From: an uncultured beta proteobacterium
Lineage (GTDB): Bacteria; Pseudomonadota; Gammaproteobacteria; Burkholderiales; SG8-41
DNA length: 64,000 nt
Assembly (NCBI GenBank): GCA_903885665.1
Contig: CAISJL010000117.1
Location: 3,479-67,478 of the forward strand
Direction: 5' to 3'
This document shows, piece by piece, positions 10 through 36,139 of the stretch (its first letter is position 1; each line of letters begins with the position of its first letter). The notes under the pieces are model-generated. The model ran no database searches, had not been told where the DNA came from, and worked only from the letters and a program-made list of their open reading frames with translations. Position numbers and translations under genes: made by a program.

Positions 10-1539
10 ATGAATTGTGTTGAACGTTTAGTGACCTTATTTGGCAGTCAGGCTGAAGTGGCTCGCCGCTTTCGCTTGGATCGTGCGGTGGTAAACCATT
101 GGGTGAAGTCCGGTTATGTGCCGGCACGATGGGCGATGGAGGTCGAGCACATTACTGCGGGACAGGTCGCTGCAGTAGACATACTGAACGAAGCAACATC
201 ACGTAAGCCATTGCGGTTGAAGTCACGCCCCGATGGTGAGAATTTTCTAGCCAACGCCTTAGTAAGGAGTGATTACAGCATGGATAAATTTGCACCCAGT
301 CAACGGATTAGTTCGTTTCACCCACCGCAGCGGACTTTGATGGGACCAGGCCCCACCGAAATTCATCCTCGCGTGCTCACCACCATGAGCCAGCCGGCTA
401 TTGGTTATTTAGATCCAGTATTTGTCGAAATGATGGAGGAGCTGAAGTCCTTACTCCGTTATACCTATCAGACCCACAATGCCTTGACTTTCCCGATTTC
501 TGGACCGGGCTCGGTTGGTATGGAATATTGTTTTGTGAATATGGTGGCACCCGGTGACAAAGTGATTGTGTGCCGCAACGGTGTATTTGGTGGCCGCATG
601 ATCGAGAACGTGGAGCGTTGCGGCGGCACGCCGATTATTGTTGAGGATAAATGGGGCGAGCCCGTGGATCCGCAAAAGCTTGAAGATGCGCTCGTCAAGA
701 ATCCAGGGGTGCGCGTGGTTGCATTTGTGCATGCTGAGACCTCCACTGGTGTGCTCTCTGATGCCAAAACATTGGTGCAAGTTGCACATAAGCATGGTGC
801 TTTGACTATTGTTGATACTGTGACCTCACTAGCGGGTTCTCCGGTATTGGTCGATGAGTGGGGTATTGATGCCGCGTATTCGGCCAGTCAAAAATGTTTG
901 TCTTGCACGCCCGGTCTATCACCAGTCACCTTCTCTGAAGAAGTGGTGAAGTATGTGCAAGCGCGTAAGGACAAAATTCACTCATGGTTTATGGATATGA
1001 ATTTATTGTTGGGTTATTGGGGTGAGACTACGCGGACTTATCACCATACTGCACCGACTAATTCCTTATTTGCATTACATGAAGCCTTGTTGTTAATTCG
1101 CGAAGAAGGTCTGGAGAACTGTTGGGCGCGCGTGCATCGTCACCATACCGCTTTAAAAGCAGGTCTAGAGGCGATGGGCTTGAAGTTTCTAGTGCAGCCA
1201 GCATATCAAACACCGCAGATGAATGCTGTGTATTGTCCAGAAGGCGTGAATGAAGCAGAAGTGCGTAAAACCTTGTTATCGGAATTTGGTTTGGAAATCG
1301 GCGCTGGCCTGGGCCCCTTGGCCGGTAAGATTTGGCGTTTTGGTTTGATGGGTTATTCTTGCCGTCCCGATAATGTGATGCTGTGCTTGTCGGCATTGGG
1401 TTCAGTGTTAGAAGACATGGGGCACGATGTACACGTGGGGGACGCTGAAGCAGCAGCCCATGCCGCTTATGCGTCTATGCACACTACTGCAGCGCAAGCC
1501 AAACTACGTCAAACAGCAAAGACGGGCACGGCGTCGTAA
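10..1539 (+). CDS. Cro/YdaS-like helix-turn-helix domain fused to class V PLP aminotransferase (alanine-glyoxylate/serine-pyruvate aminotransferase type)
   Basis: aa 1-62 (FGSQAEVARRFRLDRAVVNHWVKSGYVPARWAMEVEHITAGQV) has the Cro/YdaS pattern. From aa ~100 there are AGT motifs: LMGPGP, GSGS-like GPGSVGME, VHAETSTGV, IVDTVTS and PLP-lysine SQKCL. The frame is open back to base 1, so the true start could lie outside the window. Confidence 0.85.
   Translation: MNCVERLVTLFGSQAEVARRFRLDRAVVNHWVKSGYVPARWAMEVEHITAGQVAAVDILNEATSRKPLRLKSRPDGENFLANALVRSDYSMDKFAPSQRISSFHPPQRTLMGPGPTEIHPRVLTTMSQPAIGYLDPVFVEMMEELKSLLRYTYQTHNALTFPISGPGSVGMEYCFVNMVAPGDKVIVCRNGVFGGRMIENVERCGGTPIIVEDKWGEPVDPQKLEDALVKNPGVRVVAFVHAETSTGVLSDAKTLVQVAHKHGALTIVDTVTSLAGSPVLVDEWGIDAAYSASQKCLSCTPGLSPVTFSEEVVKYVQARKDKIHSWFMDMNLLLGYWGETTRTYHHTAPTNSLFALHEALLLIREEGLENCWARVHRHHTALKAGLEAMGLKFLVQPAYQTPQMNAVYCPEGVNEAEVRKTLLSEFGLEIGAGLGPLAGKIWRFGLMGYSCRPDNVMLCLSALGSVLEDMGHDVHVGDAEAAAHAAYASMHTTAAQAKLRQTAKTGTAS
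264..282 (+). promoter_or_regulatory. Possible internal ribosome-binding site and in-frame ATG (Met91) for an HTH-less aminotransferase isoform
   Basis: AAGGAG at 264-269, then a 10-nt spacer and ATG at 280-282 in the same frame as the ORF, just before the enzyme domain. Confidence 0.5.
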
Positions 1540-1704: not shown

Positions 1705-2562
1705 TTAATCGACTTGCGGCAACCCCAAGCGTTGCCAAATGGTTAGTGTGGGCGCTGCTTGGTTCATGGTATAAAAATGCAGCCCTGGTGCGCCTCCAGC
1801 GAGTAGTTGCTCGCACAGTGTAGTGACTACATCCAGACCAAAGGCTTGGATCGAAGTGGTGTCATCACCATAGCCTTCAATTTTGCGGCGAATCCAACGC
1901 GGAATTTCCGCACCACAAGCATCAGAGAAGCGGGCTAATTGCGAGAAGCGACCAATCGGCATAATCCCTGGTACGATGGGGATGTCAATATGCATCGATG
2001 CGCACGCATCCATGAAATGAAAATAGCAATCAGCGTTATAAAAATATTGGGTGATGGCTGAGTCTGCGCCTGCGTCGACTTTACGTTGAAAGTTTAACAA
2101 GTCTTGTTGGGCATTGAGTGCTTGCGGGTGATACTCTGGATAGGCCGCAACCTCAATAGTAAATTGTTGTCCAAACTCGCTGCGAATAAAACGCACCAAC
2201 TCGTTAGCATAATGCAGTTCACCTGCGCTACCTGTACCTGAGGGCAGGTCGCCCCGCAGTGCAACCAAATGTTGTATGCCGTGACTCCGATAGTCATTCA
2301 AAATAGCGTGGATTTCTTGCTTAGTCGAACCCACGCACGAGATGTGAGGGGCTGCCGCATAGCCGGCAGCTTGTAGATCGCGAACGACCTGTAGCGTGCG
2401 TTCGCGGGTGGAGCCACCCGCACCATAGGTTACCGAGAAAAATTTAGGTGCGAGTGCGGCCAGCATTTTGGCGGTATGGGCGAGTTTGGTAACGCCTTCC
2501 GTAGTATTGGGCGGGAAGAACTCAAAGCTAAAGGTTTGTGAGCGATTGCTTGGTGCAGTCAT
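1705..2562 (-). CDS. metF: 5,10-methylenetetrahydrofolate reductase
   Basis: FSFEFFPP, FFSVTYGAGGST, ALRGD, AITQYFY, GLHFYTMN. Start moved to MTAPSN (2562). Confidence 0.96.
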   Translation of the reverse strand: MTAPSNRSQTFSFEFFPPNTTEGVTKLAHTAKMLAALAPKFFSVTYGAGGSTRERTLQVVRDLQAAGYAAAPHISCVGSTKQEIHAILNDYRSHGIQHLVALRGDLPSGTGSAGELHYANELVRFIRSEFGQQFTIEVAAYPEYHPQALNAQQDLLNFQRKVDAGADSAITQYFYNADCYFHFMDACASMHIDIPIVPGIMPIGRFSQLARFSDACGAEIPRWIRRKIEGYGDDTTSIQAFGLDVVTTLCEQLLAGGAPGLHFYTMNQAAPTLTIWQRLGLPQVD

Positions 2563-2636
2563 GGCACTGTATTCAGTATGCTGTGTCTGTGAATTCAACC
2601 GCCACAGCATACTGCCTTAGTTAAGTGAATACCGAA

Positions 2637-4040
2637 TTAATACCGGTAGTGATCTGGCTTAAAGGGGCCGTCCACGGTTAATTGCAGATATTCGCATTGT
2701 TTTTCACTGAGGTTAGTGAGTTCAACACCAAGCTTCTTCAGATGCAAGCGGGCAACTTTTTCATCGAGGTGCTTGGGTAGCACATAGACTTTATTTTGAT
2801 ATTGGTCTCCACGGGTATAGAGCTCGAGTTGTGCCAAGGTTTGATTAGTGAACGAGCTTGACATCACGAAAGAGGGGTGGCCGGTGCCGCAACCCAAGTT
2901 GACCAGGCGACCTTCTGCTAAAATAATCAAGCGCTTGCCATCAGGGAAGATCACATGATCGACTTGCGGCTTGATGTTTTCCCACTTGAGTGTTTTGAGT
3001 TGGGCAATTTCGATTTCAGAATCAAAGTGACCGATGTTACACACAATACTGTTGTGTTTCATGCGCGACATGTGTTCAAAGTTGATGACCGCTAAGTTGC
3101 CGGTGGCGGTCACAAAAATATCGGCTTTATCAGCAGCGTAATCCATAGTCACGACACGGAAGCCTTCCATCGCCGCTTGCAGCGCGCAAATTGGATCAAC
3201 TTCAGTCACCCAGACTTGGGCAGATAGTGCGCGCAATGCTTGAGCGCTGCCTTTACCCACATCACCAAAACCGCAAACCAAGGCAATCTTGCCAGCGATC
3301 ATCACGTCAGTGGCGCGCTTGATAGCATCGACCAGTGATTCACGGCAACCATAAAGGTTGTCAAATTTGGATTTGGTCACGGAGTCATTGACGTTGATCG
3401 CAGGGAATGGCAGGCGACCTTCCTTTTCCATTTGGTATAAGCGATGCACACCGGTGGTGGTCTCTTCAGTCACGCCCTTGATGTTGGCTTCGATCTTGGA
3501 GTAAAAGCCAGGTCTTTCTTTTAAAGTTTTACGCATGGCAGCGAATAATACGATTTCTTCTTCATTGCTGCCGATGGGGGGTTGGGTGTTGGCGCGTTCG
3601 TGTTGCGCACCTAAGGTGACTAAGAGGGTCGCATCACCGCCATCATCTAAGATCATGTTTGGTGTGCCGCCATCGTGCCATTCGAGGATGCGATGCGTGT
3701 AGTCCCAGTAATCTTCTAGAGTCTCACCTTTGTAAGCAAATACAGGAATACCCGTCGCAGCAATTGCGGCTGCTGCATGATCTTGCGTTGAAAAAATATT
3801 ACAAGATACCCAGCGAATATCAGCACCTAAGTCAGCCAGAGTCTCAATTAATACGGCAGTTTGAATGGTCATGTGTAGCGAGCCGGCAATGCGAGCACCT
3901 TTCAGGGGCTTTTTGCCTTTGTATTCTTCGCGTAATGCCATCAGACCAGGCATTTCGGTCTCGGCAATTGTGATTTCTTTACGGCCAAATTCGGCTAATT
4001 CGATATCGGCGACAACGTAATCGGTATTTTTTGTAGTCAT
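2637..4040 (-). CDS. ahcY: Adenosylhomocysteinase
   Basis: [45 protein letters not shown]-terminal DHYRY. AGGAG RBS before ATG 4040. Confidence 0.98.
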
Positions 4041-4062
4041 TGCAACAACTCCTGATGTGAAT

Positions 4063-4126
4063 GGGCGCCGTTGCAAAAGGTGCGTCCCGAGCCTGGCCGA
4101 TAGTTTCGGTCGCAGCGCCCCTCAGG
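4063..4126 (-). ncRNA. SAH riboswitch (proximal copy, translational platform for ahcY)
   Basis: Minus strand CCUGAG-GGGCGCUGCG-ACCGA aacua UCGG-CCAGG-CUCGGG ... CAACGGCGCCC. P1, P2 and the P4 pseudoknot (GGGCG/CGCCC) fit the SAH consensus. The 3' P4 strand UUGCAACGGCGCC can alternatively pair with GGAGUUGUUGCAA, covering the ahcY RBS. Confidence 0.9.
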
Positions 4127-4197
4127 TGCACGTAAGGTCTCGAATATGAGTGCAGCGTAAAACGGGTGTTATGGTGATCTAATGTGATTAAACAATT

Positions 4198-4233
4198 AAA
4201 AAAAGCGCTCGCACCGTCAGACGGTACGAGCGC
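4198..4233 (-). terminator. Intrinsic terminator forming the expression platform of the distal SAH riboswitch
   Basis: Minus strand GCGCUCGUACCGU-cug-ACGGUGCGAGCGC-UUUUUUU (13 pairs incl. one GU, 7 U). The left arm overlaps the aptamer P4 strand. Confidence 0.88.
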
Positions 4234-4286
4234 AGTTGTATCTGGCTGAGCCTGGCCGGATTGTTCCGGTCGCAACGCTCCTCAGC
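4228..4286 (-). ncRNA. SAH riboswitch (distal copy, transcriptional platform, 16 nt after the metK stop)
   Basis: Minus strand GCUGAG-GAGCGUUGCG-ACCGGA acaa UCCGG-CCAGG-CUCAGC ... CAACUGCGCUC. It covaries with the proximal copy in P1 and P4. Confidence 0.9.
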
Positions 4287-4301
4287 GGGCAGAATTATAG
4301 C

Positions 4302-5468
4302 TTATTTCAGACCCGCAGCAGCTTTCAGTGCAGTCGCCTTGTCAGTATGCTCCCAAGTAAATTCTGGCTCATCACGACCAAAGTGGCCGTGCGCTGCCGT
4401 TTTCAAGTAAATGGGACGCAAGAGATCGAGTGACTGAATAATGCCTTTAGGGCGCAGATCAAAATGCAGTTCAACCAAAGCGCTGATCTTCTCATCGCTG
4501 ATTTTACCGGTGCCAAAGGTGTCAACCAGCACGCTGACAGGGCGCGCAACACCAATCGCGTAAGCAACTTGTATTTCACACTTAGAAGCCAAGCCGGCGG
4601 CAACAATATTTTTAGCGACATAACGGGCTGCGTAGGCGGCAGAGCGGTCAACTTTTGATGGGTCTTTGCCGGAGAATGCACCGCCACCGTGGCGCGAATA
4701 GCCGCCGTAGGTATCTACAATAATTTTACGACCTGTCAGGCCGGTATCACCTTGCGGGCCGCCGATGACAAAGCGCCCTGTGGGGTTAATTAAATATTTG
4801 GTGTCTTTGGTGATCATATTCACTGGCAATACCGGTTTGACCACCAATTCGATAATGGCATCGGTCAAATCTTTGTGGCTGATGTCCTCACGATGCTGGG
4901 TTGAAATAACCACGGTATCAATATGGTGTGGTTTGCCGTCGACATAACGAACCGAGACTTGCGATTTGGCATCGGGACGCGCCCAGGGTAGGCGACCGTC
5001 ACGGCGGAGTTCGGCATGACGCTCCATCAAGCGGTGCGAGTAGTAAATCGGCATCGGCATGAGTTGTGGTGTTTCATCGCAGGCAAAACCAAACATCAGT
5101 CCTTGGTCACCCGCGCCTTGATCGAGATCTAAACCTTTGCCTTCATCGACGCCTTGCGCAATATCAGTGGACTGTTCGTCGTAACAAACTAATACGCCGC
5201 AACTTTTGTAATCAAAGCCAATGTCAGAGTCGGTGTAACCAATTTGCTTAACGACTTCGCGTGCCACTTTGGCATAATCAACCCGGGCGCTGGTGGTCAC
5301 TTGTCCGGCCAATACGACTAAACCGGTGTGGGTCATGGTCTCGGCGGCGACTCTGCCGTTTTTATCTTGGGCCAGAATAGCGTCAAGCACTGCATCAGAA
5401 ATTTGATCGGCAATTTTGTCGGGATGACCTTCGGATACAGATTCAGAGGTAAATAGAAAGTTACTCAT
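4302..5468 (-). CDS. metK: S-adenosylmethionine synthetase
   Basis: [56 protein letters not shown]. Confidence 0.99.
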
Positions 5469-5761
5469 AATAGTCGTGAGATCTTTTTAGTGGATGGTTG
5501 GGTTAAGTGGTACGAAGTGATGTTGGTTTGTTGTGTTGTGATCATTATTGGGATGAAGAGTAAGAACGGTGCGACAAACCGTATTGGAGACAATTGAAAT
5601 TTTGATCAAAACATTTAATGCAGTGAACGGTTGCCGTGTAAGGGATTGCGAATTGTACCTATATTGCAGGGAAATCACAAAAAAAGCGTAGTAAATGGTG
5701 TCATTGTCAGCAGTTTAGTCTCAAAGCCGCGTTAGAATACCATATTAATGATTATTTTAAG

Positions 5762-36009: not shown

Positions 36010-36047
36010 AAAAATACAAAAACCCCGAAGCTTGCGCACCGGGGTTT
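36010..36047 (-). terminator. Intrinsic terminator of the SAM-II expression platform
   Basis: Minus strand AAACCCCGG-UGCGCAAGC-UUCGGGGUUUUU-GUAUUUUU. Confidence 0.8.
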
Positions 36048-36062
36048 GGAGAATACAATGGT

Positions 36063-36115
36063 CTCTTTAGCCGGATTTATTAGGCGCCCGCAAGCTGATC
36101 GCAAATCGGCGCCAC
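36063..36115 (-). ncRNA. SAM-II riboswitch upstream of metX-metW
   Basis: Minus strand GGCGCC-GAUUUG ... GCUUGC-G-GGCGCC-UAAUAAAU-CCG-GCUAAAGAG; conserved GAUUU, UUGC, UAAAU and GCUAAA elements of SAM-II. Confidence 0.85.
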
Positions 36116-36139
36116 TACACTGATTTAATTTAAGCGACT

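Follow-up and report, generated by a model that had tools for sequence, protein, structure and literature searches.

Every SAM-dependent methylation yields SAH, which is toxic, and the SAH riboswitch is among the few natural ON switches. To our knowledge, known SAH riboswitches occur singly in a leader. The window analysed here, a stretch of 64,000 nucleotides from an uncultured beta proteobacterium of the Burkholderiales from freshwater (contig CAISJL010000117.1), raises the question of whether two of them can act in series on the same genes: a reading made from the letters alone had placed two complete SAH aptamers about 100 nt apart between metK and ahcY. The SAH riboswitch was reportedly described by Wang et al. 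in 2008, and there is a crystal structure of the Ralstonia solanacearum riboswitch.

The SAH motif goes back to Weinberg et al. 2007 (PMC1950547). The most comprehensive tandem-riboswitch survey (Sherlock et al. 2022, PMC9481103) names SAH in its Table 3 as a class that has never turned up in tandem, so that the initial doubt about a prior description was justified; no SAH tandem of this kind is described in the literature that we searched. The same survey uses the term 'bi-mechanism' for tandem architectures that mix transcription and translation control. We consider it probable that the ahcY-metF 5′ leader carries a bi-mechanism tandem SAH ON riboswitch, in which SAH would permit first read-through and then translation.

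Two SAH aptamers and a terminator ahead of ahcY

A search with cmscan (Rfam 15) returned two matches to the SAH model RF01057 in the ahcY leader, as many as had been expected, and the whole 3.03-Mb assembly holds no other. Both lie well above the gathering score of 37 bits, copy 1 (4289-4221) with 58.3 bits (E 3.6e-8) and copy 2 (4129-4056) with 58.9 bits (E 2.6e-8). Each covers the model at full length (positions 1-78 of 78), with 91 nt between the matches and 160 nt from start to start. Both aptamers are thereby confirmed, on the minus strand and where they had first been placed. The features of the locus are as follows.

4302..5468, minus strand: metK (SAM synthetase), Pfam S-AdoMet_synt N, M and C domains, E 1e-41 to 3e-70
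4221..4289, minus strand: SAH aptamer 1, P1 4286-4281/4250-4245, P2 4269-4265/4260-4256
4280-4275/4234-4228, minus strand: P4 pseudoknot of SAH aptamer 1, from the helix tables of 47 distinct homologous copies
4056..4129, minus strand: SAH aptamer 2, P1 4126-4121/4091-4086, P2 4109-4106/4100-4097
4120-4115/4069-4063, minus strand: P4 pseudoknot of SAH aptamer 2, from 48 distinct homologous copies
2637..4040, minus strand: ahcY (SAH hydrolase), the regulated gene, Pfam AdoHcyase, E 2e-148
1705..2610, minus strand: metF (methylenetetrahydrofolate reductase), Pfam MTHFR, E 2e-88

The stop codon of metK (TAA, 4304-4302) lies 12 nt upstream of aptamer 1, and the gene has no terminator of its own ahead of the leader. 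The position of the leader fits the SAH-recycling genes (ahcY, metF, metH), with the ahcY start 16 nt past aptamer 2 and then metF. The latter follows ahcY at a distance of 26 nt with its own ribosome-binding site; it is probably co-transcribed with ahcY in one putative operon and would thus come under switch 1. The only open reading frame between the copies (TTG start, 3979-4275) extends over both RNAs as well as ahcY and was judged spurious, which leaves two complete riboswitches of the same class without a credible open reading frame between them.

The paired strands are those of the sequence-only reading: copy 1 has GCUGAG/CUCAGC as P1 and GAGCGU/(U)GCGCUC as P4, and copy 2 has CCUGAG/CUCGGG and GGGCGC/(G)GCGCCC, respectively. 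At P4 position 2, 46 of 47 distinct copies 1 have A-U and 48 of 48 distinct copies 2 have G-C; at P1 position 3 copy 1 has U-A and copy 2 has C-G. Among 122 distinct aptamers, all but one, with G.U, carry A-U or G-C at P4 position 2, the pair at P1 position 3 is either U-A or C-G, P2 positions 3-4 exchange G-C and A-U, and P2 varies in length from 8 to 44 nt with its closing pairs kept. P1, P2 and the P4 pseudoknot are maintained through these base-pairing changes.

The tandem, counted as two matches on one contig, is present in 36 of the 40 genomes of the genus. It also occurs in four sister genera of the family (6/7, 4/9, 1/1 and about 8/31 genomes) and in two further Burkholderiales families (7/28 genomes of the second and 2 genomes of the third). 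Most of its carriers are uncultured bacteria of freshwater, groundwater and soil, which older databases did not contain. Leaders with copy 1 alone and leaders with copy 2 alone are found in the same family, which argues that each unit is self-sufficient; since the single-copy leaders mix the P1/P4 signatures of both copies, no simple duplication history can be read from them. When 185,579 species genomes were scanned by exact pattern for a pair of SAH cores spaced as in the genus, a scan that is not a census, the matches listed included many G+C-rich chance ones (Streptomyces, Pseudomonas, Zoogloea, Myxococcota), and the carriers among them were metagenome-assembled genomes. Of the listed proteobacterial matches from outside the clade, 14 were tested, and each of these had zero or one match to the SAH model.

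Aptamer 1 runs into an intrinsic terminator.

4198..4233, minus strand: intrinsic terminator, left arm 4233-4221, loop 4220-4218, right arm 4217-4205, U7 4204-4198

The sequence scan gives 13 pairs (9 G-C), a loop of 3 and T7, and the fold reaches -25.0 kcal/mol (z = -7.2). The P4 3′ strand of aptamer 1 is the beginning of the left arm, and scan and fold thus agree with the earlier claim of a P4 strand shared with a 13-bp U7 terminator. A terminator homologue of 12-13 bp follows aptamer 1 in all 47 distinct tandem leaders (-20 to -29 kcal/mol), with C-G, U.G and U-A changes in the stem among them. In the predicted structures, the P4 3′ strand alternates with the terminator as in an ON switch, and on this in silico evidence the first unit would act on transcription termination.

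The second unit and the ahcY ribosome-binding site

No terminator was found 3′ of aptamer 2 in a terminator scan of the window leader, and the copy ends 9 nt ahead of the ahcY Shine-Dalgarno (SD). The proposal of two different platforms therefore holds in its outline, with a P4-overlapping terminator first and a terminator-free unit adjoining the SD second.

4053-4049 and 4040-4038, minus strand: ahcY Shine-Dalgarno AGGAG and start codon ATG, from the sequence
4040..4076, minus strand: predicted SD/start-sequestering helix, 4076-4067 and 4065-4064 with 4052-4051 and 4049-4040

Across the genus, CAGGAG stands 6-8 nt 5′ of the ATG in 21 of 22 leaders, the remaining one (L018) having AAGGA. The predicted helix pairs UUGCAACGGC.CC (4076-4064) with GG.GUUGUUGCAA (4052-4040), so that two G's of the SD and the first base of AUG are covered. 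It uses the CAACGGCGCC segment of aptamer 2, and helix and P4 are mutually exclusive. The isolated segment reaches -14.1 kcal/mol (z = -3.0; 2 of 200 shuffles were equally good), and the helix is present in the minimum free energy (MFE) structure of the whole leader as well as in that of the segment.

The suggestion that the proximal P4 strand can pair over the SD thus stands for the window, but a search for a conserved SD-sequestering helix showed that the sequence of this 12-bp helix is not conserved across the genus and is lineage-specific. The recurrent P4-SD pairing within the genus is a 4-bp GCCC/GG(A)GC alone, at -1 to -6 kcal/mol. With the aptamer blocked, modelled SD accessibility goes from 0.36 to 0.49 and increases in 31 of 39 leaders, a small and variable effect. 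In the sister lineages, a hairpin of the form CC(A/G)UUC-loop-GAA(U/C)GG bridges the final C's of P4 and the leading G's of the SD; it shows an A-U/G-C compensatory change, and its loop varies freely. The P4 3′ strand pairs with the SD in 38 of 53 local folds. A translational layer is accordingly well supported in the sister lineages by the covarying hairpin, and weakly supported in the window's own genus.

These observations leave some room for a true tandem in which aptamer 2 is not an SD-occlusion gate in the genus, but acts through mRNA stability or Rho access, or is a conserved back-up sensor with a decayed platform. The missing conservation of the sequestering helix, the weak P4-SD complementarity with its small modelled shifts in accessibility and the position of the SD just 8-12 nt past the pseudoknot in most leaders all speak for such a role. 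We nevertheless regard it as unlikely, given that aptamer 2 keeps its full model length and compensatory pairs in 48 of 48 distinct copies and is not followed by a terminator, that the window itself has a -14 kcal/mol helix over SD and AUG, and that the P4-SD hairpin covaries in the sister lineages.

Promoter, spacer and transcripts

A bi-mechanism tandem requires both units on one RNA, and the features that bear on this are the following.

4294..4299, minus strand: putative -10 box TATAAT, 7 nt 5′ of the P1 helix of aptamer 1
4130..4197, minus strand: spacer between the riboswitches, 68 nt, the longest in the genus and not conserved in the alignment

The TATAAT is invariant 6-7 nt 5′ of copy 1 in 22 of 22 genus leaders, irrespective of the upstream gene, and TATAAT, TACAAT, TAGAAT or TATACT stands at the equivalent site in other genera and families. 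A strain variant (run X25) is changed at 4293 and 4291 with TATAAT intact. No recognisable -35 accompanies the box in the leader sequence; transcription would start near 4287. Of the 22 genus leaders examined, 11 lack an adjacent metK and 7 have a divergent upstream neighbour, and aptamer 1, terminator and TATAAT are retained in both cases. With a divergent upstream gene, copy 1 must lie in the 5′ UTR in those 7 leaders. The divergent open reading frame, conserved in 7 relatives, had no Pfam match even at E = 5 and was dropped as a candidate regulator.

The spacer is only about 20-25 nt long in many relatives and its length ranges from about 20 to 110 nt. A strong promoter between the aptamers, which would have made the distal copy irrelevant to ahcY, is not apparent: neither the promoter scan nor manual reading found a promoter-like site in 4130-4197, and the promoter box is conserved ahead of copy 1 only.

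In metatranscriptomes, contigs run from metK through both aptamers into the start of ahcY. The contigs X19 (4025-5635), X20 (3975-5581) and X29 (3923-4250) cross the terminator, as does an adapter-flanked insert in X30 (4130-4268); the evidence consists of assembled contigs rather than mapped reads, carries neither strand nor local depth, and may include some DNA carry-over. X19 and X20 end in the metK 5′ UTR, which argues for RNA and not DNA. In silico, both units are thus on one transcript. RNA fragments also end at 4130/4131, directly before aptamer 2, in two independent runs, and these ends might reflect RNA processing or a second start.

A second start would fit an arrangement of separate transcripts, in which aptamer 1 and its terminator form no more than an SAH-gated end of the metK transcript, a valve on read-through, and ahcY is transcribed chiefly from a spacer promoter under aptamer 2 alone. 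The short distance from the metK stop to aptamer 1, with no other terminator present, is in keeping with this, as are the exceptional length of the spacer in the window, the repeated 4130/4131 ends and a weak CATATT at 4148-4143. This CATATT, however, has no -35 and lies 11 nt from the putative end, in a spacer that is unconserved and much shorter in many relatives. Furthermore, aptamer 1, terminator and TATAAT persist where metK is absent or the neighbour divergent, and both the RNA contigs and a discrete cDNA insert cross the terminator from aptamer 1 towards aptamer 2. We therefore hold separate transcripts to be quite improbable. That the two homologous same-ligand aptamers of the leader sense cooperatively as one unit and share an expression platform, in the manner of tandem glycine aptamers, is hardly credible in view of the complete terminator between them in 47 of 47 leaders, the separate platform of each, the variable length of the spacer and the copy-1-only and copy-2-only leaders of the same family.

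A proposed two-step ON switch and its relatives

For the bi-mechanism tandem, in which we infer SAH binding and ON logic for both units, the following course can be proposed. RNA synthesis would begin a few bases past TATAAT (4299-4294) and would also enter by read-through from metK. Aptamer 1 (4289-4221) would be the first to fold. Without SAH, its P4 3′ strand (GCGCUC) would be captured into the 13-bp terminator and the RNA would stop at U7, about 4198. With SAH bound, the pseudoknot would keep this strand, only a 7-bp hairpin six bases from the U run would be possible, and the polymerase would continue. Since the terminator greatly exceeds P4 in stability, this choice has to be made kinetically. 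The read-through RNA would bear aptamer 2 (4129-4056), whose CAACGGCGCC segment would pair over the ahcY Shine-Dalgarno and AUG in the absence of SAH; with SAH, P4 would claim the segment and the ribosome site would be freed.

SAH would therefore be needed twice for full ahcY expression, and the leaks of the two switches would multiply, giving a tight OFF state. At low SAH the response would be approximately quadratic. Finished mRNAs would remain adjustable after transcription, and metF would be governed by switch 1 only. A simple two-site model gives an apparent Hill coefficient of 1.0-1.2. The steeper two-layer response expected from the sequence thus survives as a small effect, and according to the model the main gain of the tandem would be a multiplied dynamic range.

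The aptamers resemble the SAH riboswitch RF01057 in their P1, P2 and P4 pseudoknot, conserved core, site before ahcY-metF and predicted ON logic through the P4 3′ strand. Unlike known SAH riboswitches, they form two complete units in series and fall into distinct copy types (A-U/U.G versus all-G-C P4) over three families. Bi-mechanism tandems have been described for SAM-II/SAM-V of 'Candidatus Pelagibacter' and for a mixed-platform tandem SAM-II (PMC9481103). As in these, a termination unit would come first and, by prediction, a ribosome-access unit second, with the same ligand and no open reading frame between. Those tandems, however, are SAM OFF switches that repress biosynthesis, whereas the present leader would hold two ON units that respond to SAH, a toxic by-product, and uses one aptamer class twice. 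The pseudo-cooperative tandem TPP riboswitches of Welz and Breaker 2007, to the extent that they are described in PMC9481103, likewise place two independent units of the same class in one leader for a sharper or more complete response; in that description both units are terminators and both OFF, while here the platforms differ and activation would be AND-like.

According to Leyn et al. 2014 (PMC4239095), metK is not controlled by SAH riboswitches. Here the riboswitch terminator also ends metK, so that SAH is predicted to set read-through from metK to ahcY, with metK adjacency being optional (11/22 leaders). Tentatively, and with more doubt than belief, we suggest a joint reading in which the copies are deliberately differentiated partners of a three-output circuit with an SAH valve on the metK side. 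The weak P4 of copy 1 (A-U plus two U.G) might suit a fast kinetic choice against the 13-bp terminator, and the all-G-C P4 of copy 2 a reversible equilibrium control of translation; the distinct P1/P4 'codes' might also stop cross-pairing between the copies. Where metK lies upstream, switch 1 might be an SAH-gated valve that joins metK, ahcY and metF into one methyl-cycle transcript as SAH rises. If true, one metabolite would set three outputs, namely the metK end, transcription of the operon and translation of ahcY.

SAH aptamers are already in use as sensors in methyltransferase assays, and two natural variants of unequal pseudoknot strength may be of practical use. The leader would be a natural AND-like activating circuit with two levels, transcription and then translation, usable for testing the effects of tandem ON switches on leak, threshold and timing. 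Kept in at least three Burkholderiales families, the tandem would take SAH off the 'never tandem' list.

A tandem of SAH aptamers before ahcY

The leader between metK and ahcY holds two complete SAH riboswitches, which are a genuine conserved tandem. The sequence-only reading had expected two matches to the SAH model, and exactly two were returned (cmscan, Rfam 15), both full-length and far above the RF01057 gathering score of 37. An assembly-wide search found only these two, copies 1 and 2, in the whole 3.03-Mb assembly.

Features of the leader and its genes
5468-4302, minus strand: metK (open reading frame and Pfam)
Between metK and ahcY, minus strand: intergenic leader, 261 nt
4289-4221, minus strand: SAH aptamer copy 1 (RF01057, 58.3 bits, model positions 1-78)
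Copy 1 helices, minus strand: P1 4286-4281/4250-4245; P2 4269-4265/4260-4256; P4 (pseudoknot) 4280-4275 with 4234-4228
4233-4205, minus strand: intrinsic terminator (scan: 13 pairs, loop 3, T7)
4129-4056, minus strand: SAH aptamer copy 2 (RF01057, 58.9 bits, model positions 1-78)
Copy 2 helices, minus strand: P1 4126-4121/4091-4086; P2 4109-4106/4100-4097; P4 4120-4115 with 4069-4063
4053-4049, minus strand: ahcY Shine-Dalgarno (SD) AGGAG, nine bases beyond copy 2 P4; ATG at 4040
4040-2637, minus strand: ahcY (open reading frame and Pfam)
2610-1705, minus strand: metF (open reading frame and Pfam)

The P1 and P4 helices first quoted can be read straight from the sequence. A 98-aa open reading frame with a TTG start (3979-4275, minus strand), which overlaps both riboswitches and the ahcY start in another frame, was judged spurious.

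We compared 47 distinct copies 1 with 48 distinct copies 2. Copy 1 invariably has GCUGA/UCAGC in P1, with A-U at P4 position 2 in 46 of 47 and U.G at position 6, whereas copy 2 has a (C/U)CGA-type P1, G-C at position 2 (48/48) and C-G at position 6. P2 ranges from 12 to 42 nt with its closing pairs retained. The covariation proposed between the two copies is therefore a fixed pair of compensatory changes and not noise.

Two SAH matches are found in 36 of the 40 genomes of the window's GTDB genus, on one contig and 109-160 nt apart (start to start) wherever both coordinates are listed; the four genomes without any SAH match are 76-91 % complete. Within the same family the tandem occurs in four further genera (6/7, 4/9, 1/1 and about 8/31 genomes), checked by sequence in 18 leaders. 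Other genera have a single riboswitch before ahcY, some with a second on another contig, before a gene with a metH-like N-terminus. An even sample of the order (401 genomes, 61 families) added two families, with 7 of 28 genomes carrying the tandem in one of them. In a pattern scan of public genomes, all carriers among the matches listed are metagenome-assembled genomes labelled no further than Burkholderiales or Betaproteobacteria, and the DNA runs containing the window are freshwater and lake metagenomes. Among loci L178, L179, L188 and L189, together with L171, L175 and L211, all from these families, some have only copy 1 and its terminator, right before the ahcY SD, and others only a copy-2-type aptamer with an SD hairpin; these natural single-switch leaders may descend from the tandem or be ancestral to it.

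Other features stand elsewhere in the window. Most reports of SAM_alpha (SAM-II, RF00521) come from Alphaproteobacteria. It has a match at 36046-36122 (minus strand, 37.8 bits against a cut-off of 36), with a metX-like alpha/beta hydrolase gene (35862-34714) about 180 nt downstream and then metW (34717-34121). A distinct 'metXZ' element has been described before metXW in Betaproteobacteria (Leyn et al. 2014, PMC4239095). At 10-1539 (plus strand), a 509-aa open reading frame encodes a Cro/YdaS-type helix-turn-helix at its N-terminus (residues 6-58) followed by a class-V aminotransferase domain (142-433), an unusual fusion beside methyl-cycle genes.

Terminator and co-transcription

The terminator at 4233-4205 is the single strong site on the minus strand in the terminator scan, which found none after copy 2. 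Its folding energy is -25 kcal/mol (z = -7.2). Since the first six bases of its left arm are the 3′ strand of copy 1 P4 (GCGCUC), pseudoknot and terminator are mutually exclusive; with that strand held by P4, the remaining hairpin would have only 7 bp and fall six bases short of the U run. Scan and fold thus agree with the claim that the P4 strand doubles as the left arm of a 13-bp U7 terminator, and every detail of the original observation (model matches, helices, 13-pair T7 terminator) is confirmed. All 47 leaders have a terminator after copy 1, 12-13 bp long and of -20 to -29 kcal/mol, with C-G, U.G and U-A alternatives in its stem.

An alignment of 22 genus leaders has an invariant TATAAT 6-7 nt ahead of copy 1 P1. 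At this position TATAAT, TACAAT, TAGAAT or TATACT occurs in other genera and families, a pattern of variation that fits a putative -10 box. Of the 22 leaders, 11 have a same-strand metK upstream, 7 a conserved 215-aa open reading frame on the opposite strand, and others a GGDEF or DUF4325 gene. The 215-aa frame, the best conserved among competing frames (66-92 % identity), sits between metK and the leader and is divergent from the latter, so that copy 1 must lie within a 5′ UTR in those leaders. It is found at about 770-1440 in loci L011, L014, L015, L019, L020, L028 and L029, and has no Pfam match in these 7 species.

The spacer from terminator to copy 2 is unconserved (about 20 to 110 nt), and no promoter-like site was found in that of the window. 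Metatranscriptome assemblies support co-transcription of the two copies. Contigs from runs X19 (1633 nt, 4025-5635) and X20 (1607 nt, 3975-5581) extend from the metK 5′ UTR to within ahcY, taking in metK, copy 1, the terminator and copy 2. Unlike DNA, both end upstream of metK and do not continue into the next gene. X34 and X25 span the junction of metK and copy 1, X29 covers 3923-4250, and X30 has an adapter-flanked 139-nt insert across the terminator (4130-4268, depth 7). Such contigs, without strand or local depth, show the existence of these RNAs, not their abundance.

The X19 and X20 ends suggest a metK 5′ UTR of about 115-170 nt, a region (5469-5761) with no Rfam match; compared with the window, X19 has 22 nt inserted at 5592. 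Just ahead of copy 2 (by 1-2 nt), RNA fragments end at 4130-4131 (minus strand) in two independent metatranscriptomes (the X30 insert and an X27 contig, 3940-4131); these ends could be due to chance, or could mark RNA processing between the riboswitches or a weak second start.

Proposed translational layer of copy 2

The translational layer is the least secure part of the reading. In minimum-energy folds of both the whole leader and the isolated tail, UUGCAACGGC.CC (4076-4064) pairs with GG.GUUGUUGCAA (4052-4040). This predicted helix (-14.1 kcal/mol, z = -3.0) employs the aptamer's conserved CAACGGCGCC and occludes the SD in part, as well as the A of the AUG. The proposal that the copy 2 P4 strand pairs over the ahcY SD therefore holds for the window's own fold, but the sequence of the helix is not conserved within the genus. 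Of 53 distinct tails folded locally, 38 show pairing between the SD and the P4 3′ strand, which in the window's genus is only a 4-bp GCCC/GG(A)GC (-1 to -6 kcal/mol). Modelled SD accessibility, aptamer free versus blocked, moves only from a mean of 0.36 to 0.49, rising in 31 of 39 leaders.

In sister lineages, sequence comparison points to a clear translational platform: a hairpin CC(G/A)UUC-loop-GAA(C/U)GG (-10 to -13 kcal/mol) that starts at the last C's of P4 and finishes at the leading G's of the SD, GGAG(G). This hairpin carries a compensatory change (G-C/A-U), its loop varies freely in length and sequence, and single-copy leaders of copy-2 type have it too. The window retains the 5′ arm GCGCCCAUUC, and the 3′ arm is replaced. 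Overall, we moderately favour control of translation initiation by copy 2 in the window's organism.

Precedent and expected behaviour

Published accounts of the SAH motif place one copy of it 5′ of ahcY, metF or metH in beta- and gamma-proteobacteria (PMC1950547; PMC4239095). In a survey of all classes, SAH is placed under 'not found in tandem arrangements' (Table 3 of Sherlock et al. 2022, PMC9481103); the mixed terminator-plus-RBS design proposed here is the same as that known in SAM-II/SAM-V and some SAM-II pairs (same survey). A 2025 survey of contiguous riboswitches merges SAH into the SAM group and has no comparable case in its main text, and our full-text searches found no description of tandem SAH riboswitches. 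Aptamer class and tandem architecture are both known; their combination is unreported before.

A steeper two-layer response had been predicted. When two independent binding curves are multiplied to model expression, slight steepening stands: the 10-90 % range still spans 40-55-fold, against 81-fold for one curve (apparent Hill coefficient 1.1-1.2), and the gain vanishes when affinities differ tenfold with leak. In the same model the dynamic range multiplies (10-fold for each switch, 100-fold combined) and the response at low SAH is quadratic. This outcome is in line with an account of 'bi-mechanism' systems that emphasises a gain in timing from controlling both mRNA synthesis and its later use (Sherlock et al. 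2022, PMC9481103).

The best reading of the tandem is a bi-mechanism ON/ON switch, with SAH binding and both regulatory steps predicted. Because metF has a ribosome site of its own, it would obey the first switch only. In leaders that follow metK, the riboswitch terminator would also end the metK transcript, and rising SAH would put metK, ahcY and metF on a single RNA; contigs X19 and X20 fit such an SAH-gated joining of metK to ahcY.
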